A stretch of DNA of 64,000 nucleotides, taken from NCBI RefSeq assembly GCF_000143415.4, contig NW_003314270.1, positions 3,085,478 through 3,149,477 on the forward strand, in the 5' to 3' direction. Below are positions 8,976 to 64,000 of the stretch, one piece after another (within the stretch, counting starts at the first letter, position 1; each line of letters begins with the position of its first letter). This stretch comes from Selaginella moellendorffii (lineage: Eukaryota; Plantae; Lycopodiophyta). The notes below the pieces were generated by a model, which made no database searches, was not told where the DNA came from, and saw only the letters and a program-made list of their open reading frames with translations. The position numbers were made by a program, and so were the translations under genes.

Positions 8976-9200
8976 GAAAAAAAAACGAGAAAAAAAGTAA
9001 AGGAAAAACGTATCTAAGCTCTTTCTCGCAAACGTAGCACTTTTGTAGTAAGCGCGATTCCAAAGAACTCTCCTCTCTTATATGAAAGTTGCCACCTTTG
9101 TAGTAACAAAGTTCCAATCACATCTTATAAATCTTGGCGAAAGCATGTAAGTGCTTACCATCCAACACCTCGCGCATTGGTTTTAGGGCTCTGTGAGAAG

Positions 9201-29283: not shown

Positions 29284-31357
29284 CCAACGATTGCTTAGTT
29301 CCTAAGGAACTCCTAAGAAAGTTTAGCCCAAAAGAGAAAAATGAGTCCTCTGGTCTTGATCTTTCCCCATTTTGACTGTTGGTGGGCTCATTGGAAAGGG
29401 CTCAGCCCTGTCTACCCTCAATATCAAGAGTTGCTCTTTGGGACAAACTTAAAACTTATTAAATATAGAATGTCTCTAGATTGTGAATTTGGACATGAGA
29501 CGAATACCAGTGTGTTTATAACAATCTCTACATTTTATAGATATGCCAAATGAGCAAATTTAGACACTTTCCATAATTAACATTTGGAATCAATATGAAA
29601 TTAACACAAAGGGCATGATAGCGAGGGTGTTTGGCAGACACAGTAAGCTATCATTTAGTGAATATTGAGGGACCAATCTCAATATCACAAGGGTTTTTTA
29701 TACTAGCAAGTGCAAGCCAATGACACGAGTTTTTCAAACCAAGTGAGTAGCTCAACAACAAACACATAGGGTTCCTACCTTATATTTATCCAATTTAAGT
29801 GCAAGGTCATTGACCAGTTTCTCAACTAGCTCAAGTGGGAACGATAAAAGGAATCAATTTTATCGACCTTCTGTAGTCATGGCAATAAGGAAAGAGTGTT
29901 TGTAAGGATTGGCTGACAAGTATTTTTTGATACCTGAAGTCACATTCGCGACACTCTTCCCCCCTTGGGAAAAATCGACGTCCTCGTCGATGCTTACCCA
30001 AGTCTAGCAAACAGTCAAGGAAACAACTCCGAAAGTTAACGGAAAGCACACTATGTGGAAAACGCATCGACTTAAATGAGTTATGGAATGACCTCTCCTC
30101 TACGTCCAAAAACGTTAAAATTGAGATACCCTCCAATCGTCACCGACAAGAAAATGACTAATGGAGTTAACCACTCTTGCTGCTCCAAGTACCACTCGGT
30201 TTATAAAGGAATGATACATCCAAGCCCGTAGGGACATAGGGAGAAGGCTAGAGGCCCAACTTCCCCTGTGTGAAAAATCAACCCTATCGGGAAGATTTAG
30301 ACAATTATTATAAACTGGTAGAGTAAGTTGTTTACATGACCACGCCCTTATTAAAAAATGAGTCATTGAGAGAGAGGTAGGGACTTGTGATCAATCTATA
30401 ATAGTTATCCCTATGGTGATGGATTGGACCCATGCACCAAAGTGCCAAAGTCAACCTGCCAAAACTAACCCAATTACTAACGAACGAGAGAAATGAAACT
30501 TCGATTTATAGAAATATATTACTTTATTGATTTGCAAGATTTATTACAAAGTTTACAAAAGCTAGTCTTTATTACTATTCTCATACTCTATGACAAGCTC
30601 ACGAGCATGTGTAATATTCTTAAGAGGTTCCCAAGTTGATTCATAAATAGGGTAACCTTTCCACTTAAAAGCTCTATTTCGTTAAAGTGGGATTTATTCA
30701 GTAAAATGGGACTAGGTACAAATTTTCAAGTATTTGAAAATGACGTGAAATTATATGTTTTTTGTCCAGGGGCTAGACATATCTGGGGCATGGTGACTAG
30801 CGCGGTGACTTTGTGTCCAGACTGAGTCCATCTGGTTGTATAATAAATCTCATTGTCAAGGTGAACAAGCCGAATCTGAAGCTAAAGAAGAGCAATGGCA
30901 TGCGCGCACACACTATTTGTTTGTTCATTGAGCGTGTGGTGAGCTTTCCAAGATGAACGTCATTCCTATTAGCCAGACATATAACTTAATGGTGAGAACA
31001 TTTAGATATTATTCAATGTTATCTTTTTCTAACGAATCTAATTGTGAAGGTGTAGCAAGAGGCATTGCTAGTTTGGAGAAGTCATTTAACTCATTTGACC
31101 CTTAGTGTATTTTCATGAAACTAAATAACATTCATATTATTAAGGAATTTCTCTAGTACCTTTTTTTTACGACATAGAGGCTTGCATTTCTTTCAAAGGT
31201 GATTTAGTAAAAGGCCTGAGGGCACATGCCATTCTATTTCTCAGACCGGTATTAAGATATACTAGTGCAAAGGGCCACATGCCATCACGCCTCCTCTGAT
31301 TCAGATTCGGATTGTTCACCTTGAAATAAAATACATTAGAAACTTAGTAAAGGAATA

Positions 31358-34300
31358 TTAAATCTCACCTTGAACCCGGGTTATGAATGCTCTTGCTGCA
31401 TCTCTTGCATGGTCTGGCAAGGTGATGGTGGCACTCTGCTTCTGCATCCAACAATGCACAACATTATCCACCGATATGCTCATGCTGGGATCCCTTGGAT
31501 TCAGCACCCATCTCTTTTCTAGGCAATCCTTCGTATATCCGGAACTTGGCTTGAACCACTCCACAGTTACATTGAAGGAGTTAGTTTCCGCGTCCTCCTC
31601 TGCATCAGTGATGCAGCGCCCCACCCATATCATTTGTTTTTTATTACTGGGTCTGACAAGCACGACCATTCCTTTGCAGACTTGTACTGGATTGAATGCT
31701 GAATCAGGTCCCACAATAGTGATCCTCAACATCGTTATCTGTCACTGCATTTCCAGAGGACATTGTTCCGCTACTATCTGGTGCTTTGGGTTCTGGCCAA
31801 AAGGACTCTTCCAATTCTTCATATACAACCGGCCCATTTTGGATAGCAGATATAATCTTCTCCCAGTATTCGAGCAAAGGCTTGCACCTCTTAAAATAGG
31901 ATTCTCCACCAAACACCAACCCCCTCTTCCAGAAGGCAATATGCTGTCTAATCCCAGCCACTATACTTTCCTGGTCTTTGAGTCCATCCGGGTGCATCGG
32001 CCGTGGGGAACCCTGAGGAATCATAGGTTCCCCAGTTATGGGATCTCTCTTGAAGAGTTCAATGCCGTCCACTGGCAGCCACACTGTGTCCCATTCTCTC
32101 ATCTTGTACCTCATCACTGGAGCACCGTCACGCATGCTGAAATGAAATTGAAGAGGCTTGGAATGGCCAATCAGCGTTTCGGATCCGTCCCTGATGTAGC
32201 CTCTTACAAACCCCTTAAAGTCTGGAACCTCTGTCACAAGTGCAGCTTCAACAGTGCCTTTGATGCAATTTTGGAATTCATCGTAGAGTTGTGGGAGGGT
32301 GAGGACATTGGATCGCCGGAGGGACTCTGCCAGGTGACTGAACATGGCATCGATGTCTTCATGAGTGTGCCCAACCATGAGAAAGCCAAGTGTAACCGTT
32401 TCAAATATGCCTTTGGCAACAAGCATTGCCAAGTACGCGAAGACGTACATGTTTTTGTTCTCACTGCCAGCATTGTCTGTTTGGAGCAGAAGATGGGGTG
32501 GAAGGCCACATCGGCCGCAAGAACTTCCTTGAGATTCTGCTTCATTTGGATGAGGCTGTGCATTCACCGGGCGACCAGCCTCGTCGGAATGGCATGAGGC
32601 CTCACGTGATAACCCTACAATCTGACAGCCAACATATTCACTGGGATGGCATGGGGCCCCACGCGATACTGCAAGCCTTTGCTCCTCCTCCAGCTGAACC
32701 CTGTATGGGGTTCGATCGACAAGGGCCTTATGCAAGGGTTGGCCGTTCAGCTCAGTCTGCGCACTTTGCAGAGACCTTAAGTGTTTTGCTAGGGACGCAA
32801 TCATCATGTTTGCACCCCCGCCACCCCATAGAGGTACAAAGAAGTTCCCATAGTTCTGGGCACCATGCCCATGAGCGATTATGCCAAACAGAGACACAGG
32901 CAGCTGCATGGATGAAGAGATTGCCTTGGGGGCAGGATTGAGTCGAGGTAAGCACGTCTTTTTCTGGTCCATTTTGTCGTGGATGATGCAGAGGTAAGAG
33001 TCAGGTCTCTCCATGGAGAGAATCCTGTTATGATAATATGCAGTTCTGCAGCTTCTCTGCTCGATGTTGTGGTCGAGCCGCCTTCTAACCAACGTCTCTC
33101 GCTCTTGAGCGCTGCAAGAATTCTTCGACAAAGCCATTTTGATAGCAGTGCACTCGTCACACTTTGAAAAGCTGGAGTACTTTCCTATACTCACATCCCT
33201 GAACCTGTTGCTCCACAATCAACTAAATCTAGATTGGCTCAGCTTCCTGTAGCCATTACTCTGGAGTTCCCGATTCACATCTTCCAATATGGCCCCCTTG
33301 GTATACATGGAAGGGAGAACTCGTTGGGTGTCTCGTGTTCCATCTTCCAAGAGGCGGGTTTTATGTGGTTGCTGCTCGCTACATGTCTCGACAAACCTCT
33401 TGAAGATTGCCTCTCCATATACAACATGACCCCTGGTTTTGTGCGTACCGTCGTTCCCATGGACTGCCTGTTGAACCCTTTGTTCCTCGAACTCAGTTTT
33501 GATTCTGTAGAATGTGGTTCGAGGGACTCCATAAATGATTCTCCATGCCTTCATGCAGACCAAACCCCTCTGGAAGACCATGCCCCCCACCTGATGTTCT
33601 GAAGCATCAACAGATGACCGTAATGCCTCATACACAAAATTGCGAGCTGCCTTCCAGGACAATGTCTTGTATCTTGCTCTCTCCTCTTCAATAGCATCCC
33701 AATCAGCATGTTGACAGCACCTCCTCTTGCAACAAGCAACTGTCGAGACCATTCGAACCTCCATTGCCATTTTCTGCCTTTTCGGTTCGTTGCTCAGATC
33801 CCTTTGGCTGCGCTGTAGGAAGGTGTACTTTCTTTTCCCATGAAGAGATGTTCTGTCATCAGTTGTAGTGGTGTTTGATTGTGAGTCCTTCACATTCTCA
33901 AACACTAAATGCCTCAATTTCCACCGCACAATGCTTCCAATAGTCAGACTGTTTTCTTCTGTGTCAACAACCTCTAAAATTGCAACTCCAATATCATCCC
34001 AGCCCAATTCTTGATTAGCAACCGCATCTCTTGGATCGACAACTGTGGCTAAGCCCTCAGCTACCACCTCCCCCTCGGGGTTGTTTAGAAACACCTTTGC
34101 CTGAATCCATGTAGCACGGTTCTTAAGATCCACGGAGGGAACATGCGTCGCACTTGCGCTGTCCCCAACATCTGCTTTCTTCTGCAGATTTTTCAAGGCA
34201 ACAACAACATTTACCCCGACGACCATCTCTCCTCGTTCAATAGCGACCACATTCCCATCGAAGACAGTCTCTACTGATACAGCAGCATTGCCTTCCCCAA

Positions 34301-34409
34301 GCCTTTGACAGTGTATAACAAAGTTCCGATCCATAGACACAAGGGTCCCTTTTGCAACTCTCTTCCCACCATTCAAAATGTAAACCTTTTCCCCAACCCT
34401 GAAGGCCAT
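31358..34409 (-). pseudogene. Sola-like DDD transposase with two N-terminal TnpA-like repeats and a C-terminal BAH/SH3-like domain; one in-frame stop (33219-33221) and one frameshift (near 31715)
   Basis: FSKCDEC Cys motif and catalytic-type motifs IIHDKMDQ, LQTDNAGSENKN and FLMVGHTHEDIDAMFS; ORFs 33219-34409 and 31704-33218 are in the same frame, and copy 2 has AGA where copy 1 has TGA; superfamily call by motif recall. Confidence 0.8.
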
Positions 34410-35419
34410 TCTGAAAGTGCAGAAAAGAAGTTAAGACCATACAAAAAATGATTGAAGAATGGCCTAAATCATAACATACCAAATAGCATGAGGCCACATG
34501 CCATTATTCAAATATGCTATTGACACCCACGTGAAATTTCGCATTCACAAAATTGGCATGAGCCCTCATGCCATTAGTGGTACCACTAATGGCATGAGGC
34601 CTCACGCTATCTTTGGCCCCTGCTAGCCTGTTGCTATATTCCTTTTGCCTTGTGACAACTGTATATATTTTTGTGTGCGTGACTAGTCACCCATACCATG
34701 AGAATATATACTAGTTGCCAGCATGGCATATGGACTATGGCAATAGGCTAGTAGCGGCCAAAGATGGCATGAGGCCTCATGCCATCTTGATATACACACA
34801 GCTGCAGGCAAGTAAAAACATACATGACAATACGCTAGCCATGAAATTGCAAGGGCCCAAGATGGCATGTGGCCTCATGCCATTTCTAAATGTGGTCCTA
34901 AACCATTCCATGGTGAACATACCAGGAAGCACAAGTGCCGAATATCAAGAGGAAGCGGTAGCCACACCAAAGACAGTGCCGCTCGCAACACCGCAACTAC
35001 TCGTAGCGCCGCTCGCAACACCGCAACTGCTCGTAGCGCCGCTCGCACAAACTGCCACTCGCATAAACTGCCGCTCGCAATGGCCCTCGCAATGCCGCAA
35101 CCGCTTGTAGACGCATAAACCACAGCTCACAACGCCGCTTACACAAGCAGCGCTCACTGCGCTCAGCGGAACCAAGAACACGGCGCACAAAAATGATAGA
35201 CCTAGGAATGAGTTCGAGAATTTAAAAATAACACACGCTTGAACGTCACATCAAATCCTCTGACAAACTAGATCTTATGATTCCTCTGACAAATTTCAAA
35301 CTGAGTAGCTTCTAGACTTTGCTGTCGGAGGTTGAACTTTGTCACATCATGTCCTTGCCTCGATCCAGCTGTGCCATGTCAGTGATTCGAACTTTGCCAT
35401 GCCATGTCAGCGATCCGCG

Positions 35420-38147
35420 CCAAGATTATTCGCCGTGTAAAGGAATAATTATGCTGTGTGTGTACGTCCATTTATGGCAATATAAGGCCACATGCCATTC
35501 AAAGAATAATGCTAGTCGAGCATCTTTTGGTGCATTTTTGGGTTCAAAATTGCATGAGCCCACACGCTATAAAGTTTACCTGTACCAAAAATAGAAACAG
35601 CTTTATTTACTTGGGAATTTATATGGTTGAGGCATTTTTAAACTTACAAACACATGCCCTACTTACATTCCTTTGGTTGCTTAAAATTCAAAAATATTAT
35701 AAACCTTTCTTTTTGCATTTTCAATGTTTTCAATTATGGTTTTTGATTTTCGCAGGACCAGCCTAGTAATCTATTTGCATCCCGTCATGTTTATAGCTAG
35801 CTTTCGTTTGTCCCCTTCGCTAGCCTGAGATACATCTGCTCGGCATCTGCCTCTTACAGCATTTGCCCAGAAAGGGCATCTTTCTTCACGCAGCATTTGC
35901 CACATGTTTAGGGTTAGGGTTTAGGGTTTAGGGTTTAGCAATTCAGTAGCTTGATAAACATGCAAATACAGAACTTGATGCAAAATCCTTTGATATGTCA
36001 CAATGCCCCTAGGACCATAAACACATTTCAATAGAGAGGGTCCTTTCATTTCATAACTCCTTACGTAGATCTTGGTGAAACCAGAGTTAGTGAAGTTGGT
36101 TTCTTGTAATCCCGCATCTGATTGTGATGTCCCTTTGCAGTGTCGATGGAAAGGTCAATGCACACCAAACTGTAGAATCTTGGAGCAAAATAACGGTCGG
36201 ATCTATGGCAGATGCCCCTGAAACATTGTAAGGCTCGTGTGGTCTCATGTGGTGTCCGATCGAGATGCTTCTTTGCAGGGTCATCAAGAAGGACATTGTA
36301 TACCATTCTGTAAAATCTGGTTGCGATCTAACGGTTGGATCTCCAGGAAACTCAAAACAATCTCGCGCGTGTCAGAATATTCTAGGAATATACTCCTATG
36401 TGCTCCAAGATTATTCGCCGTGTAAAGGAATAATTATGCTGTGTCATTTATGGCAATATAAGGCCACACGCCATTCAAAGAATAATGCTAGTCGAGCATT
36501 TTTTGGTGCATTTTTGGGTTCAAAATTGCATGAGCCCACACGCTATAAAGTTTACCTGTACCAAAAATAGAAACAGCTTTATTTACTTGGGAATTTAAGT
36601 GGTTGAGGCATTTTTAAACTTACAAACACATGCCCTACTTACATTCCTTTGGTTGCTTACATTCCTTTGGTTGTTAGCTTTCGTTTGTCCCCTTCACTAG
36701 CCTGAGATACATCTGCTCGGCATCTGCCTCTTACAGCATTTCCCCAGAAAGGGCATCTTTCTTCACGCAGCATTTGCCACATGTTTAGGGTTTAGGGTTT
36801 AGGGTTTAGCAATTCAGTAGCTTGATAAACATGCAAATACAGAACTTGATGCAAAATCCTTTGATATGTCACAATGCCCCTAGGACCATAAACACATTTC
36901 AATAGAGAGGGTCCTTTCATTTCATAACTCCTTACGTAGATCTTGGTGAAACCAGAGTTAGTGAAGTTGGTTTCTTGTGATCCCGCATTTGATTGTGATG
37001 TCCCTTTGTAGTGTCGATGGAAAGGTCAATGCACACCAAACTGTAGAATCTTGGAGCAAAATAACGGTCGGATCTATGGCAAATGCCCCTGAAACATTGT
37101 AAGGCTCGTGTGGTCTCATGTGGTGTCCGATCGAGATGCTTCTTTGCAGGGTCATCAAGAAGGACATTGTATACCATTCTGTAAAATCTGGTTGCGATCT
37201 AACGGTTGGATCTCCAGGAAACTCAAAACAATCTCGCGCGTGTCAGAATATTCTAGGAATATACTCCTATGTGCTCCAAGATTATTCGCCGTGTAAAGGA
37301 ATAATTATGCTGTGTCATTTATGGCAATATAAGGCCACACGCCATTCAAAGAATAATGCTAGTCGAGCATTTTTTGGTGCATTTTTGGGTTCAAAATTGC
37401 ATGAGCCCACACGCTATAAAGTTTACCTGTACCAAAAATAGAAACAGCTTTATTTACTTGGGAATTTAAGTGGTTGAGGCATTTTTAAACTTACAAACAC
37501 ATGCCCTACTTACATTCCTTTGGTTGCTTACATTCCTTTGGTTGTTAGCTTTCGTTTGTCCCCTTCACTAGCCTGAGATACATCTGCTCGGCATCTGCCT
37601 CTTACAGCATTTCCCCAGAAAGGGCATCTTTCTTCACGCAGCATTTGCCACATGTTTAGGGTTTAGGGTTTAGGGTTTAGCAATTCAGTAGCTTGATAAA
37701 CATGCAAATACAGAACTTGATGCAAAATCCTTTGATATGTCACAATGCCCCTAGGACCATAAACACATTTCAATAGAGAGGGTCCTTTCATTTCATAACT
37801 CCTTACGTAGATCTTGGTGAAACCAGAGTTAGTGAAGTTGGTTTCTTGTGATCCCGCATTTGATTGTGATGTCCCTTTGTAGTGTCGATGGAAAGGTCAA
37901 TGCACACCAAACTGTAGAATCTTGGAGCAAAATAACAGTCGGATCTATGGCAAATGCCCCTGAAACATTGTAAAGCTCGTGTGGTCTCAGGTGGTGTCTG
38001 ATCGAGATGCTTCTTTGCAGGGTCATCAAGAAGGACATTGTATACCATTCTGTAAAATCTAGTTGCGATCTAACGGTTGGATCTCCAGGAAACTCAAAAC
38101 AATCTCGCACGTGTCAGAATATTCTAGGAATATACTCCTATGTGCTC
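35420..38147. repeat. Internal tandem array, 3 units (one of about 985 bp, two of 871 bp), each with a (TTTAGGG)n tract
   Basis: Equivalent short ORFs recur at 36061/36932/37803 (period 871); telomeric tracts at 35907-35938, 36784-36809 and 37655-37680. Confidence 0.92.
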
Positions 38148-38934
38148 CTGAAAATGGCATGCGGCCCCACGCCATTCAAGAGATAACGCCAGATGACGCC
38201 GAGCATTTTTTGGTGCATTTTTTGGGATCAAAATTGCATGAGCCCACATGCTTGAACGTCACATCAAATCCTCTGACAATTTATTTAGCTGAACATCTGG
38301 CATTTTTGGAAATACAAGATGCTTTGGAATATCCAATCATGCATGGTATAAATATAGCGAGGGTATTAAATGATATCCCAATCATGATCTTTCTTTTGGA
38401 TTTCGCGTGCATGCAGTCCGAGGAATGATGACGTTGTGGATTTCTTTTGGATTTCACGCATGCGCGCGCCGATCCAGAAATTAATGGTGGCGCCCAAGTC
38501 CGAGAAATGATGACGTGGCGGGATTACCAACCGTCGTGACATTTCGCGCGTGTGAGGTTAGGTTTTGCATTTTGCTTCGTACTCGCGCTCGCACACTCGC
38601 GCTCCCACTCGCGCTCGCATCGCGCTCCCACTCGCGCTCCCACTTCTCTACAGGTTTCTCGTGTGCATCGGCGTCCACTCGCGCTTGCATCACACTCGCG
38701 CTCGCATCGCGCTCGTGTGCATCGGCGTCCACTTCAAGACACACCCAGTTTGTAACTTCGCCGCCAACTCCGCCGCCCACTCCGCCACCCACACGCAGCC
38801 CACTTGGCGTCCCGGGAGATTTCAGCGCCACTCTCCAACTTTAAGTGGCAGAGTAGCCTTGCTGCTACAATCCGCTGCACACACAGTGCACATTCGCCAG
38901 CGAGTCCGGTTGTCACGCCTCCATTCGGCTTCAA

Positions 38935-41900
38935 ATGGTAAGTCTTTTAGGCCAAGTAGAAAATGGCATGAGGCCACATGCCATTCAGTAGCAACATTGG
39001 CATGCACCGATTGGGCTCTCAAGTGCAGTCCGGTTACAGATGGCGTGTAGCCTCACGCCATCTTAGGATGCAGCCTCAAGACATCTGATGCAATGGTGAA
39101 TGGCGTGTGGCCTCACGTTATTTCCAGCTACTAGCTTTTCATCTGTCAGCTCTAATTGTTGTGCATTTCTGAACAGGCGAGGAATTGCGTTCTTCTTCCA
39201 GCCACTGTCAATGTGGATGCAGAGAAGGGGGAGGAGCTCACCAGTTGGACTTTCGGGATGGAAGGCGAGGATCTGAGGCTGTACAACACAGATGGTGGGA
39301 GAAAAGAATGCATGGGGATCCTCATCCAAGTGACAAACACTCCATGCAGTTCCATGCAAGAATATAGACTGGCACTTGTGGTAGAGACAGCGTCCGCCTT
39401 CAAGATCCACCTTGCACATCCTAGCGGCTTCTCGGAGGGGGGCAGCGGCTATGAGGAATTCCTAGAGGGAGCTAGGGAGAGGTTGTCCAGGAGGCCCACA
39501 ATTTCAAAGACACTGCGGGTCTATGAAGATCACATGGAATTCACGGACCTCACCTACGGCGATGTTCAAAAACTATATTCCAACATTGAGCCGTTGAGAG
39601 TGACTCCAATTCGCGAAGCAAAGGGGAAGGGGGTCGATCTGGAAACTACCTCAAAGCAGAAAAGGGTGGTCAAGCTCAAGCCGACGTCCGACTCTCCTGC
39701 TCCAAAAAAGAAGCTACTCAGTGATGCCATTGCCTCGGGTTCGAACACTACACCCACCAAAAAGAAGAGCCGCAAAGAGCAGAAAGAGCAAGAAGAGGCA
39801 GCAAAAATCGTCGCAGATAATAGTACTTGTTACTATTCCAACAAAGTATATACAATCGACGTGAGCCGTATCGACATCCAAAGCAAATACAACCACAGGC
39901 TAGTATCTGATGAGTGGGTGGAGAAATTGAAGCAGAAGATGCTGGCAAGTCCAGTAACACCCGACATCACAGACGTGATCCCCTACTACCAAAAAATGAA
40001 GGGCGAGATGAGGTTTCCAGACTTGATCAATAGGAAGGTGTTGGACGATCAGAACATCCGGTTCTATGCCGTCTCCGGGCAGCATTCTAGCTTGGCGATG
40101 CAAGAGATAGTTGTGGAATTTATGGTGGGCGAGGAGGTGAAGAAAGTCTTCAAGACAAGAGTTGTCCGCCTGATAAAAGGCAACTCGCCCCTCCGATCTA
40201 TCATATACATCTCCCACGCGCAGAATGTCAAGCAAGAAACGTGCTACAAATCGGGTCTGCACGAGACATTGGCACGAACACGGAAGCTCTGGGTTCAACT
40301 GAAGAAGCCACAAAAACCAGGACAAGGACGTGCACTAGCAACTAGCGCCTGGCAGGTAAGCCTCGTTGTATGTGGCATAACATGTGGCCTCACGCCATTT
40401 CCATTGCAGGAATTCTCGAGTCTTCTCTCGAAAACACTGGGGGTCAATGACACACTCAGCATCCATAACATTCTACTCGCGACAAAAGTTGTTTTTGACA
40501 AATGGGTAGATGTGCTGAGGAGGTACCATGACGGGGAGTTGCCAAACTCAATGGGTGTGGAGGACAGCCGGAAGCCCAATGATTTGAAGCTCAACGCCTT
40601 GCGTTTCTCGCGGTCTCTAGACGACGACGACCTTCTGACAGTGGCTAATGCTCTTCTACGTGGTGAGGTTGTCTTCAACAAGACCAAAATGACTCCCGGC
40701 CATATTGTGACATACGAGGACTTGTGCACGACTCTGAGAGCTCGTGCGCTATTGAAGGATTGGATCTTCGAGCAAGTGGCCGTGGAGAGGGTGAGCATCG
40801 ACACCACGCAAGAGATGATGGAAGCGCTGGAGTTGTCAAATGAAGACATCGACGAGTACGTGAAGGGGGCCCCCAAGTTCATCGATCTGCTGCGGGATGC
40901 CACGAAAAGTAAAGCTGAGAAGTTGGATCAGTATCCAAATTTCATTAAGATTGATGTCGACTGCCGGCTTCAGAAACAGCTCGACCCTGCAGCAGAGGCC
41001 TATCGAGAACCTTACCGGGTATACTTGAATTCGGATGAGGATCAAAGGTGGAGGAGCATCGTTTCCCGCGGAGATGAGCAGGTCAAGAACATCTTTTGTG
41101 TGATGGACTTCACAAACGAGGAGATCACTCATGCAGACGAAGTCAGCTCCATCATTGACTTAATGGTGGGTCTTGCGGAGGTGGAATCTTCAGTCCACTA
41201 TATGATCTATGACTCCGAATCCTATCACAAGTTCTGGAAGTCCTTGAACGAGGTGAAGGCTCGGTTGAAAGGCAAGGAGATGCAGGAGATCCATGGGATA
41301 ATGGCTAAGAAGAAGATACCGACGAATGTCCGCATCTTCACACTCGCCCTTGTTATTGGTCCTGCAGCAGAGTGGGACTGGAGTGACTTCCCAGCTTCGT
41401 TCGACAAGGCCAATCGAATTGATCTGAGGGAGGTCAATTTACCCGTGCCTGAGGAACTGAAGACGGCTATGGAGCTTTCGAATCCAAAGAAAGCTCCAGG
41501 TGCAGCATGGGAAATGCTCAGCTGGGTCTTCAATGCAATAGCGGGTGGGTCACCTGCTTCCGACTCCAAGGGCAAATGCGTTGTCGAGTACAACTGCGGC
41601 GGACTATTCTTTTGAGCCGCACTACTCAAGGGTGTCCCGTGTGTTGCGGTGACAAACTCCATTGAAGAGGTGACTTCAATGGAGCATATAATTACAGTTG
41701 CTAAAGAAAAACAGTATCTTCTCTGCGAACCTGGTGAGTATGCACTTTAAGTTTAAATGTTATCTCACAAGCTCTGTATGCAGGAGCGTGGCCACCCCCA
41801 GATGCTGAAACGGCGTTAACAGCTACTGTTGAAGATACCCATGTTGGGCTGAGCTCACAACCTGCACAAGGTAAGGTCACGTGAGGCCTCACGCCATTTT

Positions 41901-44602
41901 GATTATAGATCGTTGTGAATATTCAGACACGAGGACTGAAAAGCGCACTGGTGGCGCATCGAAGAAGGACAAACAGAAAAGCAATAGGAAAAAAGGAGGT
42001 ACAAATTATATTTGCAATGGCGTGTGGTCTCATGCCATTCCTTGAGGGAGAAACTTCTTCAAAGGCAAAACAGGCAAGCACCAGCCAAGCTCAAACTGAC
42101 AGTGGTCATAAAAAGCGAAAGCACGTTGGACAGTCGTCGAGATCAGAGGCGTTTAATTCGAAAAGGAAGAAGGGCAACGAAAAGATGATAGGTAATGCCT
42201 CGCGGTTATGGCGTGTGTGCTCATGCCATTCATTGCAGATCAAGGGCTGAGTGAAAGCAGGCAGTCACCACCTCATGACTCAGATTCCTATGGCGGACTC
42301 CCCTTCCCCAATCTCAATGGAGAGGTACAATGGATGAGGGAAGCTCTTCAAGTCAGGGCCACGTTTTTCTCATCTCGTCGTCTTCGAAGGGTGCAAGAAT
42401 GTGCAGAAACCATGTTAAGACAGTCGGGTGAGGATACGGTCCTAGGTCACGCACTAAAACAGGCTATGGATGTCTTCTATTCTGAGATGGAGACTCGGCC
42501 AGATGATTTTCCCAAGATGGTCCTGGAAGAACAAGCCATCCAGCCTGAGCAGCCTATGGAAGAAATGCAGGAGGGGGATGAGGAGCCAGAGAAAGATAAT
42601 GAGCAGGAAGAGCAGAAGGACGAAGAGGAGGACAAAGAAGAGGAGGACGAAGAAGAGGAGGACAAAAAAGAGGAGGACGAAGAAGAGGAGGACGAAGAAG
42701 AGGAGGACGAAGAGGACTTGGATGGTCCTCACAATGGTGACGATCACAATAACAACGACGACGATGATGACGACGATGGCCAGCCTGAGGTGGCCAAAGA
42801 GCGGCGGAGGAAGGTCATACAAGACAAACCATCAGGTAAATAATAATACATCCATTCTTAACCTTTTACCATTTCTAACATTGTCCATGTAGGTCGCAGA
42901 GCAAATGGTAAGTAGAGATTATTCAGTTGAATTTACAAACTCTAGCCTTTAGTGTCGAGGAAGGATAGTGCCAAGCAAGGGTCGAAACGTATGTCCAATC
43001 CTTCAGAATCAGCAGTGCGCTCAAGTGATATCGGTCCTAGTTCCTCAATAGCAGTTGATGGTAAATACAGTATAGTCGATTCAATGTGCTAATGAGTTTG
43101 TTTTTAGTAGCACGGGAGGATACCATCTCAATCGAAGGGAGATATTTGGACATGCATATGGATCCGCCAGTGGACTCTACTTGGCTGCAAGAGTCATCAG
43201 AGCTGGTGGAGGCTACTATCCATATCAACGCCAAGCAAGCTGACCACGCTCCACTTGATGCTGCCCATACCACTGAGTCAATCTTGTCCACGTATCCAAC
43301 TGACGGTGACCAGGCGCCATTGGACCCACATGAGGCCACCCCAGCCGCCGAGCCGGTCGTATCCTCATTTCCAACGGACTCAACGTGTGCCCAATCGTCT
43401 GACTACGCGCCGTTGGAACCTCCCTACACCGCCCCTGCTGCCTGTTCGGTCATGTCCACTTTGCCAACGGAGGCACCAGCTGAAATGGCGTGTGATCACA
43501 CGCCATCGGAACCACCCCATGCCACTGTTGAGCCAGTTGTACCAGAGTCTACAGCTGAAATGGCATGTGCCCACACGCCATCGGATGCGATTGACCCCAC
43601 ATTGCAGAGGAGAGTATTTCCGCCCTTCACGTTTCCTCGACCAAAACCCTCTCAACGACCATCGGGAGCAACATTCGCTAATATTGTAGATGGTAAAATT
43701 GACTTGTACCATTTTTTATGCTGACGCATTTAATTTCAGAGTCACGGCGAAGGTACTATATCGTTTTTGATCTGAACGGTGTCCTTTTCTCCCATGAGCA
43801 TGGCTCGTCCTCGAATGTCATTGCACCCTCCAAAGCCTGCGGTCGCAAGTTGGTCAAAAGAGACAGATTCACATTAATCACACGGGAGAAACTGCGGGAT
43901 CTAATAATGACCATGCGACACTTAAAACAGAGGGCCGGGTTCAATTTGCAATTGGGAGTTTGGACATCCATGATGCACCACAATGCATTAACGTTGCTAC
44001 AGATGATGCACGATCAGACGCGAGTAATATTACCATTTGACTTTCTCCTAACGCAGGAGGATTGCTTGACTATGGTCCATGTGAGGGGTAGCAAGCCCAT
44101 CTTCGTCAAGCCAGAGGCTGTAGTGATGAACCGGACTGCTAGCTCAAGTGAAATCCTCATCATCGATGACTCGCCGATTAAAACTGCAGCGAACACGCAC
44201 ACATATGCAGTGCACCCCATCTCTTGCAGTATGGAAACTAGGGAGAAGAAACCGTATGTTCTGGGGGACCTTGCAAAACGGCTTGGAGCGATGGTGATAG
44301 AGAACCGGCCAGTCCAGGAGGTGGCTGCAGAAATCAACCAAATGGCAGATGGAACGGTATATCAGAAGCCATTTGATCGGACAGACACTAGTCATCATTT
44401 ATGGCATGTATATTGTCTAGCCAAGCACTATCCGCATCTCCATAATCTACTCAACCGGATGGGTTCTTCGACCACTGAACATGAGCGTGGACGTATTAGA
44501 GAAGAGATGGCATTACTATTGGGTTTAAATCCTGATAGTGTGGAGAGTGATGAAATTCCAAGATTATTGTATAGGCGTTGGAGGCAAAAAATAACAGTCT
44601 GA
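38935..44602 (+). pseudogene. Transposon cargo gene, predicted 11 exons, about 1,650 aa: ParB-like, degenerate MTase-like, acidic tract, FCP1/NIF HAD phosphatase-like; one premature stop (41613-41615)
   Basis: ATG at 38935 followed by GT-AG introns starting at about 38938, 40356, 41734, 41871, 41999, 42192, 42836, 42908, 43061 and 43693 that join the long ORFs in frame; NIF motifs VFDLNGVL, GVWTS, KPIFVK, IIDDSPIK; copy 2 has CGA at the stop. Confidence 0.7.
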
Positions 44603-45044
44603 GATGGCATGTATTTATTTAAAAATGTAACTTATTATGGCATGGGGTTCCATGCCATTGTATTAATATTAAAAGACAATTCTTTGAGAGGATTTGCATT
44701 ATACTAGAAGTGTTACAGCATGTTATTGGAAGTCTACGAAGTTGTTTTATTAATAATGGGAAAGTAAAGATTGAATGGGGACTTGGGCTCCACCTAGACT
44801 CGGAGCAACTGAGCCAATATTAAAAGGATGGAAAGAAATTGGACGACGATGACAAGGAGAAGAGAGAGGTGAAGCAGTGGCAGGGGGAGGAGAAGTGATT
44901 GAGTAGACATTTCCTTGTTTAAAATAAAATGGCATGTGCCTCAATGCAGTTGAATTTTGTTATATTTATATACTATATAAAGGTTTGGAAACATTATTTT
45001 ACAAGTGGGATAATGACAATTCCCACTTTAACGAAATAGAGCTT

Positions 45045-48000
45045 TTAACTAGATATTCCTTGGAATGACCACCACAAGCTTTGCGGGACAAGAGAATCAT
45101 CTTGAACTCATACTCCATGTCAACATTCACAACTTCTGGAGGGGGACGAATGTCCAAAGAGCGATCCACATCAACATGATATGGTGCTAGTAAACTGACA
45201 TGAAACACATTATAAACATGGGACAACTCATCCGGAAGATCCAACTTATAGGATACATCACCAACTCGCGCCAATACCCAATAGGGTCTGACATATCTCG
45301 GTAATAGTTTCTGAGATAAAGCTCCCTTAATATTCAAGTTCTAGGAAAATAGCCATACCTGATCTCCCACTTGATAGGATACATCCTGACGATACTAATC
45401 TTTATCACGTTGATACCTATCCTAAGCTTTGTCCATCGCCTTAGTAGCTCTAGACCAACCTTGGTGTAGCTACTCCATATAAGTCTCACCACTTGCAATC
45501 TTCGACAACCGATCCATAACCACCATCAAAGTATCATAACCTTCAAACTTTGGCAAGCAAGTGACAAAATGAAGTGTCACACTTTGAAATGGCTATGCCG
45601 GTGCTAGACTACATTGCAACTTTCCAGCCTACTTCTTAGTTCTGTGTTTACATTGCTGGCATATAGGGCAGGAACGGACATAGTTCACTACATCACCTTC
45701 CATACCAGATCAGAAAAATCCCTTTTTCAACGAATCCAAAGTCTTTCAGTTTCCACCATGTCCAGTTGTTGGAACATTATGGTGTTCCCGCAAAAACAAC
45801 TACTGCAGATCCTTAGAGGGAAGATACAATCTTTCTTGCTTATAAAATATAAGCCTATCCCAAACTGAGAAGTGAAGCTTCATATTAGTGTGACTAGCAA
45901 CTTTTGTTGCTTTGCTACCAGGGTTTTGCTTTGACAACTCCACATGGTGTAAGATTGCTTTCACCAACAGATCACTTCCATATGAAGCCCGAACATCCTC
46001 CAACCAATCTGAATTAATTATCGATATTTCCCAGAACTAAGCTTGATGACTCAATGCATCCGGAACAATATTGTCTTTACCATGTTTATATATAATTTCA
46101 ATATTATATCTAGCAAGCTTCTTTTGCCAACGAGCCTACTTTAGCATAGGTTTAGACTTCATAGCAAAGTAGCTTAGTGTGTTACTATTTGTATGAACCT
46201 TGGTGTGTCCACCCAAGTAGTGTCTCCAGTGTTCCAATGCCGACACTATAGCAAACATTTCTTTCTTGTGCGTTGGCCATTTTTGTTGGGTTTCATCCAA
46301 TTTCTTGGAATAGAACGCAATAGGACAACCATGTTGCTTTAGCATAACATCAACCACTTTATCACAATCTTGCCGCAACACAGCACCAATAGCATAGCCA
46401 GATGCATCACAATGCACTTCGAAGGGTTTATCAAGATCCGGAATCTTGAGAACAGGAACTGTAGTCAAAATCTCCTTCAACTGTACAGAAGCACACTAAC
46501 AAGCTGGTGTCAAATGAAATGACTACTCTTTTTATCAAGATCTAGGATCCTAAGAATAGGAATTGTAGTCATGATCTTCTTTAATTGTACAAAAGCACAC
46601 TAACAAACTGGTGTCTAATGAAATGGTATACTACTCTTCGTTAACTCAGTGAATAGAAGACCGATTTTTGCAAAATTGTGGACAAACTTGCGATAATATT
46701 ATGCCAAACTGAGAAAGGAACGAACATCTGATACAGTGGTCAAAACTTCCCAGAACTTCACCACTTCTGTCTTATTTGGATCCACCTCAATTACGCTACC
46801 ACCAACTATATGTCCAAGAAAGTTCACGCACAATTTTCCAAAAGCACATTTAGTTTCTTTAGCATATACTTTGTGTTCACGCAATTTCTGAAACACCATC
46901 TCCAAGTGTTTCAAATGATCTTCCAATGTCTTTCACTAAAAACTAAAATATCATCAATATATAGGACAATAAATATGTCCAAATAATCTCTGAAAATTCT
47001 ATCCATCATAGTGTTTAATGTCGCCGGAGCATTGCATACGGCATGACAAGGAACTCATAAGATCTATACTGAGTTTTAAAGGCTGTCTTCTTTGTTTCAA
47101 ATGATCCTCCAACGTTTTACTGAAAACCAGAATATCGTCGATATATAGGACAACAAATGTGTTTAGATAATCTCGAATATTCTATCCATCATAGTGCTGA
47201 ACATTGCCAGAGTATTGCATAACCCAAATGGCATGACAAGGAACTCATAAGATCCATACTGAGTCTTAAAGGTTGTCTTCTTCACATCTTGATTTGCCAC
47301 CCGTATCTAATGATATCCAGACCGCAAATCAAGTCGCGTAAAATACTCAGCCTTTAAGAGTTGGTCAAATAAGTCATCAATGCGAGGCAAAGGATAACTA
47401 TTTTTTACCGTGATTTTGTTGAGTGCCTGATAGTCAATACACATCCTCATGATTCCATTCTTTTTCATAACAAAAAGGACCGGCACTCCATAAAGTGACT
47501 TGCTATAAGCTCCTTAAATTTAGACTTCCCAGTACTATTCAAACCCAAAGACGCTTAACCCCAAATATCCCAAAACCCTTAACCGATTGGAAAAGGGGGT
47601 GCACTCTTGTTCATGGGCCCTTTCCTTCTATATTTGAACCCCATGAATCGTCTTTTGAGTCATTTTCTTTGGTTGCTTACACTTGTTTGGTCGAATGTGA
47701 CCTTTATCAAAAAGCTTCATGAGTTGCTTCTTGAGTTCAGCCATCTCCTTGATGTTCAATTGATGGATCATCTCTCTAGTCATTCTTTTTGGTTGCTTAC
47801 AATCCACTATGCTTCCCTGCAAGTTCATGCCCTCATAAATGGAAGTTGAGAGGTACAGCTCTCCCAAGAGCCTCGCTCTTTTGACACCCTACCCCTCGGG
47901 TCAAACCCAGTGGGAGCAAACTGAACCAACCAGATGTCAATCAACATGTGGTGTGATTCCCCTAAGCCAACCAACAAAGTCAGACTCGAGACCACTTTGA

Positions 48001-50600
48001 TACCAAATGTAAGCTTCTTGAATTTAGACGTCCCGGGAGGTCACCCAGCCCAGTATTATTCAAACCTAAGGACATTTAATCCCAAATATCCCAAAACCCT
48101 TAACCGATTGGAAAAGAGGGTGCACTCTTGTTCATGGGCCCTTTCCTTCTATATTTGAACCCCATGGATCATCTCTTTAATTGTTCTCTTTAGTTGCTTA
48201 CAATCCACAATGCTTCCCTGCAAGTTCACGCCCTCATAAACGGAAGTTGAGAGCCATAGCTCTCTCTCGAGCCCCGCTCTTTTGAAACCCTACCCCTCGA
48301 GTCTGCCTAGTGGGAGCAAATTGGACCAACTAGATGTCAATTAACATGTGGTGTGATTCCTCTAAGCCAACCAAAAAAGTCAAACCCGAGACTGCTTTGA
48401 TACCAAATGTAAGCTTTTTGAATTTAGACTTCCCGAGAGGTCACCCAGCCCAATATTATTCAAACATAAGGACACTTAACCCCAAATATCCCAAGACCCT
48501 TAACCGATTGGAAAAGGGGGTGCACTCTTGTTCATGGGCCCTTTCCCTCTATATTTGAACCCCATGGATCGTCTCTTGAGTCATTCTCTTTGGTTGCTTA
48601 CACTTGCTTGGTTGAATGTGACCTTTATCAAGAAGCTCCGTGAGTTGCTTTTTGAGTTCAGCCATCTCCTTGATGTTCAATCGATACAGAGCTTTTGTAG
48701 GTGGTTTAGAACCTGGAATAAACTCAATCTGATGATCAACCTCATGGCTAGGAGGTAGCCTTGGTGGCAAATCCTTCGAGAAGATATCCTGATTCCACTC
48801 CAACAACTCCAATATCTTCTTTAGTACAAGATCAACCCTGTCACCAATCTGAACTGAGTCACCCACACCCTCAGCTTCCATCACTTGAACCCAAAAGGTC
48901 TGACATCCCTTCTTAGCTGCTTTTTGAGCAGCTCTCGCAGTCAGGAACTTAGCATCCCAATCCTTTGAAGAGCACTTTTGCAACTGGAAGGACACATCAG
49001 GGACTTCAATGTGATGTGACTTTGTCCAGCACCATAAATCCCTTTTATATATTTGTTAAAGAAATCCATACCAAATACCATTTGAAAATCTAGTATCTTC
49101 AACACTACCAAGTCCACTCTTTCTTTCCACTTGGATATTTTTATTGGAACATCACTCACAAACTTTCTAGCTACTTGCCCACCTTCCACAAACCAGAAGT
49201 GCATAGGCAACATTTTCTTAGCATTCAATCCTAACAACTTAACTAAGTCTTTGGATATCTGCTGTGTGTAGCTCCTGTGTCAATCATCACTCAGATTCAG
49301 TGTCCGCGGACAATGCCTACCAAATACATCAACAGATCAGTGTTTGCATTGACTGTGAGAAAGCTTGAGGAAAGCAACGAAAGTAACTCACCTCCCCTTC
49401 ATCATAGTCTGCATTGACCAACTCGTCAACCCCTTCAACTTCACTACCACCATCTTCCCTCATGACATTAACATGAGACCTTGTCTTATGCTTGTTGGGA
49501 CATTTCGAGAACCTATGTCTTGGGAAGCAATGACCCACACTACCCGTTCCGCTAGGAGCAGGTTTCATAGGTTGTTGTTGCTTGTACCCACCAAGAGGAG
49601 GAACAGAGGGCCTAGGACCAAAAGAAGCTATTGATGGTTTGCAACCACCACCACCACCTTTGTTAACCATTGCTTATGAGCCCCTAGGGGGGAACTTGCT
49701 TTCCACCCTCTGTTTCCGATCACTTTGTTTATTCCCAAAATTCTTATTCTTGTCCGAGGTACCAGCATATGGCTGTTGATATTGTTTCATGAGTGAGTGA
49801 CTAGAGGCAACTTGCTGCGCTGCCTCCTTGCACTCCATATATGTCTTTGGCTTAAACTTTAGAATCTTATTGCGAGAAAGTGAACTTAAACCCTTTAGGA
49901 AATAACTCCAAGCATCTTCATCACTCATATTTGCAATCATAATGCGCTTCTGAGCAAACATATTAATGTAATGCATGAGGTCCCCTCGTTGCTTTAACTA
50001 CCGCAACTCCATGCAAAGTCTCAAACCAAGATCATCCAGCAAGTATTCCTTATGGATACGAGACCGCATTTTGGTCCAACTTCTAGCCTGTCCTTTTTCA
50101 ACACACACCTGGTGCCACCAAGTTTTGGCATAATCGGTGAGAAAGGATTGCATGCACACAACTTTCGTACGATCATCTACATTTGCCGCTATGAAATAAT
50201 TTTCCATATTGTAGACCCAGTCTTCCAAAACTTGATTGTCCCACATGCCTCTAAAATTGAGTGGTTTCGGAGGTTTGAACTTTGAAACTCGTGCAACCAG
50301 GGGTAGTTGTAGAACTTCATTGTCCTAAGAACTTGAAGAGGAGTCTGGTTGCTTAGGCTTATTTGGTTTAGTTGCCTCAGTTTCTTTCTTCCTCTTCTTG
50401 TTCTCCTTCTTCAATTTGCGAATCTCCCTTCGCAAATTCTCGATCTTGACTTCTGAGCCATACGCTGCAATGCCGCAGCATTTGACTCTTCGTCTTATGA
50501 CTCAGCCTTTGCCTCTTCCGCAGCATCTCTAGTAGGAGTTTCCTCTTCTCGATTCACCTGTCTAGAGGTTTCAGCATAATCAGCATGGTTCCATTTCACC
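45045..50600 (-). pseudogene. Chromovirus gag-pol remnants (gag, protease, RT, RNase H, integrase, start of chromodomain)
   Basis: [66 protein letters not shown]; many stops and frameshifts. Confidence 0.9.
47504..48602 (-). mobile_element. Tandem TRIM (Cassandra-like, 5S-bearing 195-bp LTRs) inserted in chromovirus RT
   Basis: TSD GCAAG on the minus strand (47499-47503, 48603-48607); LTRs 48408-48602, 48008-48202, partial 47763-47801 and 47504-47681; PBS TGGTATCAAAG after the LTRs; ~205-bp internal domains; 400-bp period. Confidence 0.88.
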
Positions 50601-53600
50601 ATCCCGATAGCTGCATGCATGCCTCTATCAGTAATTGAACATGTATACAACATTCTTACCGAATGGTGCAATCCAACTAATCTTACACAGGTCGCTTCAG
50701 ATCTACTAGAAAAGTCTTTGCATATGCAACTTAAGTCAGAAAATCCCACAAAAATTAGATAGGAATCGCTGAGATAATTCCTCTAATACCAAATATAGTG
50801 CACTTGAATTTGGAGCTGAACTCCAAGCCCATTGCACTACGAAACGAGGGTCCGGTACAATCCCACGAGCACCAACTCTCTGTATCCAACACTTGCACAC
50901 AAAATGGTGTCAGATGGAGTCTGACACAATTTTGGCATACCGGTGGCCTAACGCAAGGAGGAGGGTACCCCACTGACTAGAGTAGCATGGAGCTTGGGTT
51001 TAGACCCAAGCTGGACGTAGAACAAGGAGCGACATAGCCCAACAGGAGCCAAACTAATCTCTCAGGTGGTCGAACATGCATTCCAACCACTATCCCTACT
51101 ATACATTTGGAACCCCTCATATCCCCCCCTCTGAGGAACACACTTTGGGTTTTCACCCCAAGCCTCCTTTAGTACCAAGAGTTAGTCTCTAGAACAAGCT
51201 TGAAACTTACTAAATATGGAATGTATTTAGATTGTGAATTTGGATACAGGACAAACACCATTGTGTTCAGGCTGATCTCTACATTTTGTAGATATGCCAA
51301 ATGAGTGAATCTAGACACTTTTCATAAATAGCATTTGGGACTGAAATGAGACTAACACAAAGGGCATGATAGCAAGGGTGTTTGGAAAACATGGTAAGCT
51401 ATCATCCAGTAATATTGAGGGACTAGTCTCAATACGCAAGGGTTATTGCTAAGCCAATGCAAAACAGAGCAAAAGAGAAATAAGAGCCAGGCTAAAAATG
51501 CTAAGCTAAAAACACATAGGAGTTCCTACCTTATATTCATTTGGCTAAATATAGATGCTAAGCCCAGTAAACTAACATTTGGACAAGAGGGGCTATTAAA
51601 GGGGACCAGCAATTCGGACCTACTGCCGTTATGGCAGTAAGGAAAGAGTGTCTGTAAAGACTGGCCGACAAGTATCTTTCGATACCTAAAGTCACATTCG
51701 TGACATGAGCTCTCACTGATTTAGACTTGGTCTTGATAGCTTTGCACCCTAGCTGAGGATGGAGATGTCGAACTTAGTTGTTTGAAGTTTAGGTGTTGGT
51801 ACCTATACTATAGCTTTGTCTATGAGGAGGTTGTGTACCAATATGAGTCCATCTCATGATCTTCACTTTAGTTTTGGCTGAGTGTTGGTCATGCATAGCT
51901 AACCTCTTTAAGGCATGCTTAGAGCTATTGGCTAAATGCATTAATGGGCTTATTGAGGTTCAATTAAATTCGAGTGGTCATTTAGTTCATGCTTATCCAT
52001 GTATCTAGGGTGTTACCTTCCGTTAGATAAGCATATGACACGATGACATGAGTTTAGTGTTTAGGTCTTATGATGGCAAATTGAAGAGTGATTATTAATT
52101 GCTTTGTAGCTAGTGATTGCTTGTAAACTTTGTCGAGGATTATTAACACTTGCTTTGCTCGATGAAAATTTAACAATGATAGGCTTGCTTTACTGGATGG
52201 TGTTGTGAAGGACCTTATTGTGGGCTTGCATGGTTTTTCCATGTTGGCATGTTGATTTCATATTTGTTTATATCATTTGGTTGCATTTAATTTGTGGTGT
52301 TGGATTACATTGAGTCTTGGATGTGATGATTCACTCCTTGATGATGTGTTGTCTATAACTAAGTATTATTGACATTTGCTTTTATCTTTGATATTGGTTA
52401 ACTTGGTTGTTAAAGAGCTTTGAATGGTGATTCGCTCTTACTTTCTTCTAACTTTGTTATGGTATTAATAGCATTGAAGTGATGTCTTGTCATTGACATT
52501 GTTGATGTTGATATTTGAGTGAAATGAGATGTCTCTCCATAGGATTGATATTCAACTATCTTAGTCTCGATAAACATAGTGTTGATGATTTGGTTATAGT
52601 TATATGCTATTAGCATTTGTGCATTTCCTAGCTAGCAATTGTGTTAGCACTGAATGACAAATTTGAGTTAGCTATATTCTAGACGAGATTATTTAGTAGG
52701 GGTTGAGCTTTGGCTTTTCCTTAAAACGTGATTTAGTCATGGACTATGTTAGCTTTATAAGAAGAAAAATTAGTGATCAATATTGAAGTGATTAAATCCT
52801 TGTTGGATTTGAGTTAAGGATATATTGATTATTGATGATTTTTTTTGTGTTTGTTATGAAATGAGTTACGCTCTGCTATAGAAGATGGATTCATGGAAGA
52901 TCATTTAGTAACCACTTATTGAGCATAAGTTCGTTATGCTTGGTTTTTGGATTGATGTAGATATGCTCTTCATTAGCTTTAGCATTATAAAATTTGGCTT
53001 ATAAATGTGTTAAAGAGAATATTATGGGTTGTACCATGATTTCTTCTTTGGCATTAAAGTTAGTTCATGCAAGACTCGTGATCATTATTAGGCAAGACTT
53101 GGCTATAGGCTTCTTTAAACTTTTTGTTCTTTAAGTTTTATGCTCATTTGTCCATTTGTTAGGAGTTGTTAAGGAAGGCATTTTAGTTTGTTAGCTTTGA
53201 TGTTAAAGTTAGTATTTGCTTTGGTAATCATTGATAACGATTAACTATCATCTAGAATACTTGATTATCCTTCTCAAAGGTTTTGCTTCATTATTGTTAT
53301 TATAAACTGATTTGCCGTTCTTCGGGATGAAGCTCTATTTCGTTAAAGTGGGAATTGTCATTATCCCACTTGTAAAATAAGGTTTCCAAACCTTTATATA
53401 GTATATAAATATAACAAAATTCAATTGCATTGAGGCACATGCCATTTTATTTTAAACAAGGAAATGTCTACTCAATCACTTCTCCTCCCCCTGCCACTGC
53501 TTCACCTCTCTCTTCTCCTTGTCATCGTCGTCCAATTTCTTTCCATCCTTTTAATATTGGCTCAGTTGCTCCGAGTCTAGGTGGAGCCCAAGTCCCCATT

Positions 53601-53771
53601 CAATCTTTACTTTCCCCTAATTAATAAAACAACTTCATAGACTTCCAATAACATGCTGTAACACTTCTAGTATAATGCAAATCCTCTCAAAGAATTGTCT
53701 TTTAATATTAATACAATGGCATGGAACCCCATGCCATAATAAGTTACATTTTTAAATAAATACATGCCATC

Positions 53772-60636: not shown

Positions 60637-60668
60637 CTAAACCCTAAACCCTAAACCCTAACCCTAAA
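60637..60668 (-). repeat. Interstitial plant telomere tract (CCCTAAA)n in the single repeat unit of copy 2
   Basis: CTAAACCCTAAACCCTAAACCCTAACCCTAAA. Confidence 0.9.
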
Positions 60669-63987: not shown

Positions 63988-64000
63988 AACGAAACCCCTC

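Follow-up and report, generated by a model that had tools for sequence, protein, structure and literature searches.

What was the long second gene of a DNA transposon in the lycophyte Selaginella moellendorffii for? The gene lies at 38935–44602 of a 64,000-nucleotide stretch of contig NW_003314270.1 (positions 3,085,478 to 3,149,477 of the forward strand in RefSeq assembly GCF_000143415.4; this whole stretch is called the window below, and positions are counted from its first letter). A first-pass annotation, made from the letters alone, had joined separate open reading frames (ORFs) at this place into one protein with ParB-like, methyltransferase (MTase)-like, acidic and FCP1/NIF phosphatase-like parts, and had proposed it as an unusual transposon effector. 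The reading that we favour, with a probability of roughly 45%, is that this is the dead second gene of a TTAA-targeting transposon with a DUF7869 transposase, and that its ~1,657-residue protein bound palindromes of its own element as a self-recognising regulator that sustained the expression of the element.

The element is a cut-and-paste DNA transposon with terminal inverted repeats (TIRs), a TTAA duplication, a DDE-type transposase gene and multiple copies; feature positions are collected in Table 1. The ends and the TTAA duplication of copy 1 are fixed by its flanks, between which a single Ty3/gypsy chromodomain is split into halves: its sequence on the right runs to EYLV, and that on the left opens with KWKGYP and gives a Pfam Chromo match starting at position 22 (E 1.4e-8). 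The Asp and Glu residues of the transposase motifs HDKMD, DN and GHTHED are invariant in 8 of 8 aligned sequences, and the transposase of copy 1 has a premature TAG at 33219–33221, where relatives of 1,050–1,070 amino acids read through. In copy 2 the transposase has a stop at 62903–62905, and the second gene runs from 59394 to 53772 with a TAG at 54009–54011 (codon 1564); the visible end of this copy is flanked by GATG, without TTAA. The second gene of copy 1 is a pseudogene because of an in-frame TGA at codon 796 (41613–41615, exon 3), which is CGA in copy 2, so that both copies of the gene are dead, with a different stop in each, and the single open frame from the ATG at 38935 to the stop at 44602 that had been proposed is interrupted. 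Of 100 transitions scored between the copies, 73 have a CG or CHG context, a pattern that relics under methylation are expected to show. The two copies stand tail to tail over 45045–53330, which is 8.3 kb of decayed Ty3/gypsy DNA (gag, protease, RNase H, SH3), and further variants of the transposon occur among genomic contigs (run X3).

The rebuilt second gene has 11 exons and 4,974 nt (1,657 codons and the stop at 44602, from the ATG at 38935), with two phase-0 introns (38938–39176 and 40356–40409) followed by eight phase-1 introns (41734–41783, 41871–41926, 41999–42050, 42192–42238, 42836–42892, 42908–42952, 43061–43107 and 43693–43739). This GT-AG series agrees with that of the first-pass annotation, and its splice signals are strong when sites are ranked by a simple consensus score: of the 292 GT sites within 38900–44600, the six with the highest donor scores all belong to the model, and nine of its ten acceptors fall within the top 10% of 461 AG sites. 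Intron 5, whose acceptor near 42050 had been flagged as weak, is indeed weak at both ends, and a nearer AG at 42045–42046 breaks the frame. The intron 2 junction, WQ/EF, equals that in Selaginella XP_024528744, and it is also the point at which several homologous ORFs begin or end. We infer that the ten junctions were spliced and that the ParB part was joined to the NIF part in one transcript.

The same stretch could be read as two genes, or as a gene with a short isoform, in which a ParB-MTase-acidic protein ends at a TAA in intron 7 (42841–42843) and a NIF gene begins at the exon 9 ATG near 42991. The weakness of intron 5, the fact that the named homologues end after the MTase-like part and the lack of a joining transcript in the RNA data searched would fit such a split. 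We nevertheless consider it unlikely: introns 7 and 8 have donors of the top class (score 8 of 9); introns 3–10 are all phase 1, so that exons 4–10 are all phase 1-1 and skipping any one of them keeps the frame; only ~150 nt separate the TAA from the ATG; a 4-nt insertion of a related genomic copy falls inside intron 8; and there is no exon frameshift in the sole contig set that covers all 30 bins (run X3).

What the protein looked like was approached through its relatives. An exhaustive search gave 16 matches, of which 14 were kept (P0036 and P0041 were removed as repeat-rich); these homologues come from Selaginella and liverworts, with invariant residues kept from lycophytes to liverworts. 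The nearest named homologue is from S. moellendorffii itself; of ten homologue clusters looked up, three could be assigned a name (Selaginella, Calypogeia and Riccia), and these consist of hypothetical or unnamed proteins. Two word-based homologue searches found none, a search for viral relatives found none either (21 pattern matches, 0 confirmed), and the N-terminal 200 residues align to the N-termini of three homologues no better than shuffles do. A fold of the single sequence was useless (predicted local distance difference test, pLDDT, 33), and the comparisons below use a model of 649 residues built from a 25-row alignment (mean pLDDT 62).

Residues 13–152 of this model, where pLDDT is mostly 70–90, match ParB, Noc, KorB, PadC and sulfiredoxin (Srx). 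The first 13 Foldseek matches listed are all Noc, ParB, KorB or Srx (best E 6e-4), VIA gave Caulobacter ParB at Z 10.5 with a root-mean-square deviation (rmsd) of 2.2 Å over 98 residues, and PadC and KorB were the top two of an unbiased structure search. The Riccia homologue's domain is grouped in the Atlas with DUF3723 (0.95, 183 shared features) and ParB_N (TM 0.54). The alignment-based model and the three structure searches thus uphold the earlier suggestion of a ParB/Srx fold with a divergent GxxR motif, which we regard as predicted; profile libraries detect none. The sequence motifs that the first-pass annotation cited do occur in the gene. ParB and MTase profiles from Pfam, NCBIfam, PHROGs and PADLOC had no match on the window protein, those of Pfam had none on 24 search matches and cluster members either, PDB sequence and profile searches gave chance matches only, and HH-suite comparison with P1 ParB gave a probability of 0.3%. 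The GxxR arginine is replaced by Ser in 10 and by Thr in one of 11 sequences (GQHS/T; the equivalence is judged by motif and secondary structure). Myxococcus ParB aligns with model residues 19–317, including its DNA-binding region (Z 10.9, rmsd 10 Å), and residues 205–317 lie inside alignments to the ParB DNA-binding region at an rmsd of 5–11 Å; a helix-turn-helix (HTH)-like role of this helical domain is plausible.

Model residues 406–642 resemble beta-class N4/N6 DNA methyltransferases, among them M.MboIIA, CcrM, PvuII and rotifer N4CMT, at Z 7.2–8.7 (8.2–8.7 over 146–173 residues to four beta-class enzymes). The MTase-like part of the first-pass annotation stands to the extent that this predicted fold is found at borderline Z, and it falls short in lacking DPPY. 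Activity as an N4-cytosine or N6-adenine methylase marking the palindromes (below) would be in keeping with the fold, with a motif IV Asp that is invariant in 6 of 6 sequences and with the existence of plant 4mC enzymes (10.1101/2021.02.12.428880). It is nonetheless very improbable, as the PPY after that Asp is missing in all six, the FxGxG loop is degenerate in the three sequences that reach it, pLDDT is 25–60 in this part, and NOX/reductase Rossmann domains tie with the methyltransferases (Z 8.4–8.5).

The last exon carries the sole profile match on the window protein, to NIF (PF03031, 24.2 bits against a cut-off of 21.8, E 3e-5), and the reading of this exon as a HAD domain like that of phosphatases of the RNA polymerase II C-terminal domain (CTD), with the second Asp of its motif changed to Asn, holds up as a prediction. 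Its DxDxT/V motif reads DLNGV (43769, in both copies), and the motif II Thr/Ser, the Lys and the DD are present by inspection (WTS ~43961, KP ~44108, DD ~44165). DLNG may also be characteristic of a broader NIF subgroup in plants.

What says most about mechanism was overlooked by the first-pass annotation and is a new observation here: a 22-bp palindrome, ATGGCRTG-N6-CAYGCCAT. When up to 4 mismatches are allowed, all 39 matches in the window lie within the two copies of the element (25 kb), with 0 in the other 39 kb and 0 in 20 shuffles; the consensus was built from these same sites, so that the invariance of its columns is in part a matter of selection. In copy 1, 18 of the 22 palindromes are non-coding: nine lie between the divergent start codons, seven are intronic (second-gene introns 1, 2, 4, 5 and 6, which is five of its ten introns) and one stands behind each gene, and none is found within 380 bp of the element ends. 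The tandem repeat of 871 bp between the genes (35798–38252) has three units in copy 1 and fewer in copy 2, and each unit holds a short TTTAGGG telomere-like run and one palindrome. A 197-bp imperfect hairpin at 34589–34785, just upstream of the transposase, has a palindrome in each arm and could be a small-RNA source or a unit like a miniature inverted-repeat transposable element; its Rfam matches are all sub-threshold (miRNA-like).

Two other explanations of these sites have to be weighed. According to the first, the protein bound them for the mechanics of transposition, condensing or bridging the 14-kb element, joining its ends or shielding excised DNA. Sites along the whole of the element, TIRs of just 24 bp on a length of 14.4 kb, the predicted ParB-type fold and the similar DUF3723, a gene that Starships conserve next to their recombinase (PMC9156397), are in its favour; the sites, however, gather at promoters and introns and away from the ends, the NIF and acidic modules suggest transcription or chromatin, and the GxxR Arg is missing in 11 of 11 sequences, and we judge the chances of this explanation to be low. 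The second explanation takes the palindromes as transposase sites or by-products of internal repeats, with the second gene as cargo that acted elsewhere or not at all. DNA transposases often bind internal repeats, the palindromes have no excess of conservation between the copies, and another element seems to share the right end while its inner DNA, which holds a palindrome, is different (a genomic contig of run X3 has 45003–45044 in common with copy 1 and probably belongs to a related or non-autonomous family). This too appears unlikely to us, given a protein family kept from lycophytes to liverworts with invariant residues, the palindromes in half of the introns of the second gene, and ParB folds being known binders of such sites (PMC12704722; 10.1101/2025.02.11.637652).

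If, as we favour, the protein was a self-recognising regulator, a dimer would have docked on each palindrome through the helical domain, like ParB, KorB and Noc on parS-type sites. The enzyme-like modules would mostly have been binding scaffolds, since the GxxR Arg, DPPY and the second Asp of the HAD motif have all given way to other residues, and the acidic tract and NIF module may have contacted chromatin and phosphorylated RNA polymerase II. Such contacts might have countered host silencing near the two divergent promoters, as VANC does for VANDAL elements. The idea of a transposon effector is borne out in that the gene lies inside a DUF7869 element bounded by TIRs and a target duplication; it is tempered by the present copy being a pseudogene, by a NIF fusion that is presumed, and by each enzyme-like domain being without a key catalytic residue. 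A more specific version, which we hold to be possible though doubtful, is that DUF7869 transposons of land plants captured a phage-type ParB-methyltransferase fusion, that its active sites were disarmed, and that the acidic tract and CTD-phosphatase-like module were added, giving a ParB/parS-like self-recognition in which the protein loads on its private palindrome in the promoters and introns of the element and, by recruiting or trapping RNA polymerase II in its phosphorylated form, would sustain transcription of the element.

Are these modules linked outside the window? In 80 metagenome loci of related transposases, which form 61 clusters, NIF-like DNA was found in three clusters (L004, Pfam NIF E 5e-6; L058; L079) and the helical domain in two (L058, E 1.7e-9, and E 9e-7 directly against the window; L079, E 1e-3), with reversed-sequence controls giving E of at least 0.66 at best. 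In both L058 and L079 the NIF-like match lies 3.6–4.3 kb downstream of the helical domain on the same strand, an overlap with a chance p of ~0.002; both loci are decayed, and their orientation to the transposase is unlike that of the window. These loci support an old cassette in the order helical domain, then NIF, which need not imply a single gene. The start of the ParB part has no more than weak matches in L058, L079, L040 and L004 (E from 0.007 to >1 over all 80 loci), which are leads only, and a candidate MTase tail in L079 was dropped as evidence (HH-suite probability 0.1%). L004 has two tandem decayed NIF-like segments (3488–5367, minus strand) ~5–6 kb upstream of its DUF7869 fragment, divergent as in the window. 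In L027 (1–648) and L032 (7918–8565, minus strand) an Ulp1/ElaD-type protease-like ORF (Pfam E 0.02) is found upstream of a DUF7869 fragment in the opposite orientation, and is possibly another accessory gene of this group of transposons.

A number of results weigh against the regulator that we propose. In three raw RNA runs, of which about 12% each was searched, depth was 0 across 39520–44895 with zero splice joints, so that the RNA check suggested at the outset showed none of the ten junctions. Both genes carry stops in both copies within the window, and the second gene differs between them by 22 synonymous and 53 non-synonymous codons, which is near neutral. The palindromes differ at 3 of 242 positions against 117 of 7,200 elsewhere and so have no extra conservation, a weak test at such divergence. 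A search of the window protein with HTH profiles gave no match, and a classical CTP-gated sliding clamp is doubtful because of the loss of the GxxR Arg, whose change to Ala leaves other ParB folds unable to bind NTP (PMC12704722). None of the named homologues joins ParB/MTase to NIF, those of Selaginella (449–451 amino acids) and Riccia (629) ending earlier. As to the metagenome loci, the NIF pieces of L058 and L079 were found by an L004-seeded profile and have no Pfam match alone, the window NIF exon has no BLASTP similarity to the L004 NIF ORF, and no recurrent long palindrome was seen in the decayed L004, L058 and L079.

RNA reads matching the region did so only partly (189 of 190, 118 of 118 and 242 of 246), mostly over 40 nt at 38838–38877. 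We rejected this pile-up as gene expression, since the reads match these 40 nt and then continue into unrelated sequence. The segment, in the 5' region of the second gene, draws reads of a very abundant RNA with unrelated flanks, by chance or as a captured fragment; an Rfam search of it gave no match, and we take it to be similar to the 3' end of 25S ribosomal RNA. One depth-4 contig from a presumed-RNA run joins donor 39104 to acceptor 39177 (GT..AG) in a frame that does not yield the second-gene protein; by this contig the 39177 acceptor is usable, but with another donor and probably with another locus as the source. Presumed-RNA contigs from two studies (runs X2 and X13) have 38943–39382 fused to the same foreign 5' sequence, which suggests a transcribed fragment elsewhere.

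Table 1. Features of the transposon and its second gene in the window (bp positions; strand as read in the window).
Feature	Position	Strand	Remarks
DNA transposon, copy 1	30669–45044		14,376 bp; 24-bp TIRs, TTAA at both sides, split chromodomain
Left TTAA duplication and left TIR	30665–30668; 30669–30692	+	
Right TIR and TTAA	45021–45044; 45045–45048	-	
DUF7869 DDE-type transposase gene	31361–34409	-	PF25273 E 2e-43; 3' end past 31704 approximate
Divergent promoter region between the two genes	34483–38175		9 palindromes, three of them within the 871-bp tandem repeat
Second gene, exon 1	38935–38937	+	ATG only; strong donor 38938; 5' end uncertain
Exon 2	39177–40355	+	N-terminal region, basic linker, predicted ParB/Srx-fold domain (~39825–40242, model residues 13–152; GQHS at 40077)
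Exon 3	40410–41733	+	Helical domain ~40410–40737 (aligned with ParB DNA-binding region); predicted beta-class MTase-like fold ~41004–41712 (model residues 406–642)
Exons 4–6	41784–41870; 41927–41998; 42051–42191	+	Low-complexity, Lys/Ser-rich, phase 1-1
Exon 7	42239–42835	+	Acidic tract; copies 1 and 2 differ here by 45 nt in length, in frame
Exons 8–10	42893–42907; 42953–43060; 43108–43692	+	Ser/Pro/Thr-rich; two palindromes in exon 10
Exon 11	43740–44602	+	Predicted NIF/FCP1-type HAD domain and helical tail
22 palindromes, copy 1	31211, 32589, 32646, 34483, 34553, 34589, 34764, 34862, 35549, 36525, 37396, 38154, 38963, 39040, 39100, 40377, 41876, 42017, 42208, 43485, 43560, 44637		
Transposon, copy 2	53330–64000	-	Inverted, ~98% identical, continues past the window edge

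Elsewhere in the window, 4600–10256 holds ordinary host genes, namely an F-box gene and one for an AHK4/CRE1-type cytokinin receptor, in which the intron at 5409 is GC-AG. The receptor gene has nine introns of 53–133 nt as read by eye, so that host introns are short.

The second-gene protein belongs to a family without a Pfam model, whose annotated members are called hypothetical. If our reading is true, a fold of bacterial or phage chromosome segregation has found a new use in the nucleus of a plant, with its catalytic arginine lost. Together with the 22-bp palindrome, the protein makes a directly testable protein-site pair for what would be a second system of its kind in plants, and, if binding is specific, the pair could become a sequence-specific chromatin-targeting tool.

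How does the element compare with known systems? The superfamily may be Sola or Kolobok. The PF25273 transposase is one that we presume to be linked to Sola-type (Sola3) elements, which also have a TTAA duplication; Sola3 ends read GAG..CTC where the termini here are AAG..CTT. The TTAA duplication and the RR..YY ends fit Kolobok by the criterion of PMC9587614; accessory genes are a further feature in common with Kolobok, and the Kolobok accessory proteins listed in that paper are unlike the second-gene protein.

Phages often carry fusions of ParB with N6_N4 MTase (PMC12704722), from which the core of the second gene probably derives. With these fusions and with bacterial ParB, Noc and KorB the predicted protein has in common a ParB/Srx fold followed by a helical region; it differs in having GQHS/T for GxxR, no DPPY, a spliced gene, no ParA and a 22-bp site where theirs has 16 bp, and in passing no ParB or MTase profile. 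The DUF3723 of fungal Starships, the nearest Atlas cluster, is likewise a conserved accessory gene on a eukaryotic mobile element (PMC9156397), although Starships use a tyrosine recombinase; PF12520 had no match on the window protein or its homologues.

VANC of the Arabidopsis VANDAL (Mutator-like) elements is also the product of a second gene on a plant DNA transposon, and its element-specific motif is likewise distributed over introns, intergenic DNA and variable tandem repeats (PMC5735166). The VANC21 motif, by contrast, is a 9-bp non-palindrome, and anti-silencing is proven for VANC where we infer it for the second gene; no link in sequence or fold was found, though none was tested for.

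ParB-fold accessory genes on eukaryotic transposons have already been published for red algae: in Plavaka elements (EnSpm/CACTA) a ParB-like PAG3 lies beside inverted repeats, and binding to self DNA was proposed, though not tested, in that work (Petroll et al., 10.1101/2025.02.11.637652). The literature searched, which excluded subscription journals, Repbase Reports and preprint supplements, held no description of the plant gene family, nor of a single-chain ParB-MTase-acidic-NIF protein on a DUF7869 element in land plants. Plavaka (PAG3/PAG2) and the present transposon are alike in being eukaryotic DNA transposons with a ParB-like accessory gene, and Plavaka also has an N6/N4 methylase domain (PF01555). 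There, however, ParB is fused to a 2-oxoglutarate oxygenase and the methylase is separate and fused to SET, whereas the second gene is predicted to unite its ParB, MTase-like, acidic and NIF parts in a single chain, on a land-plant element with a DUF7869 transposase, a TTAA target and palindromes that are dispersed and intronic.

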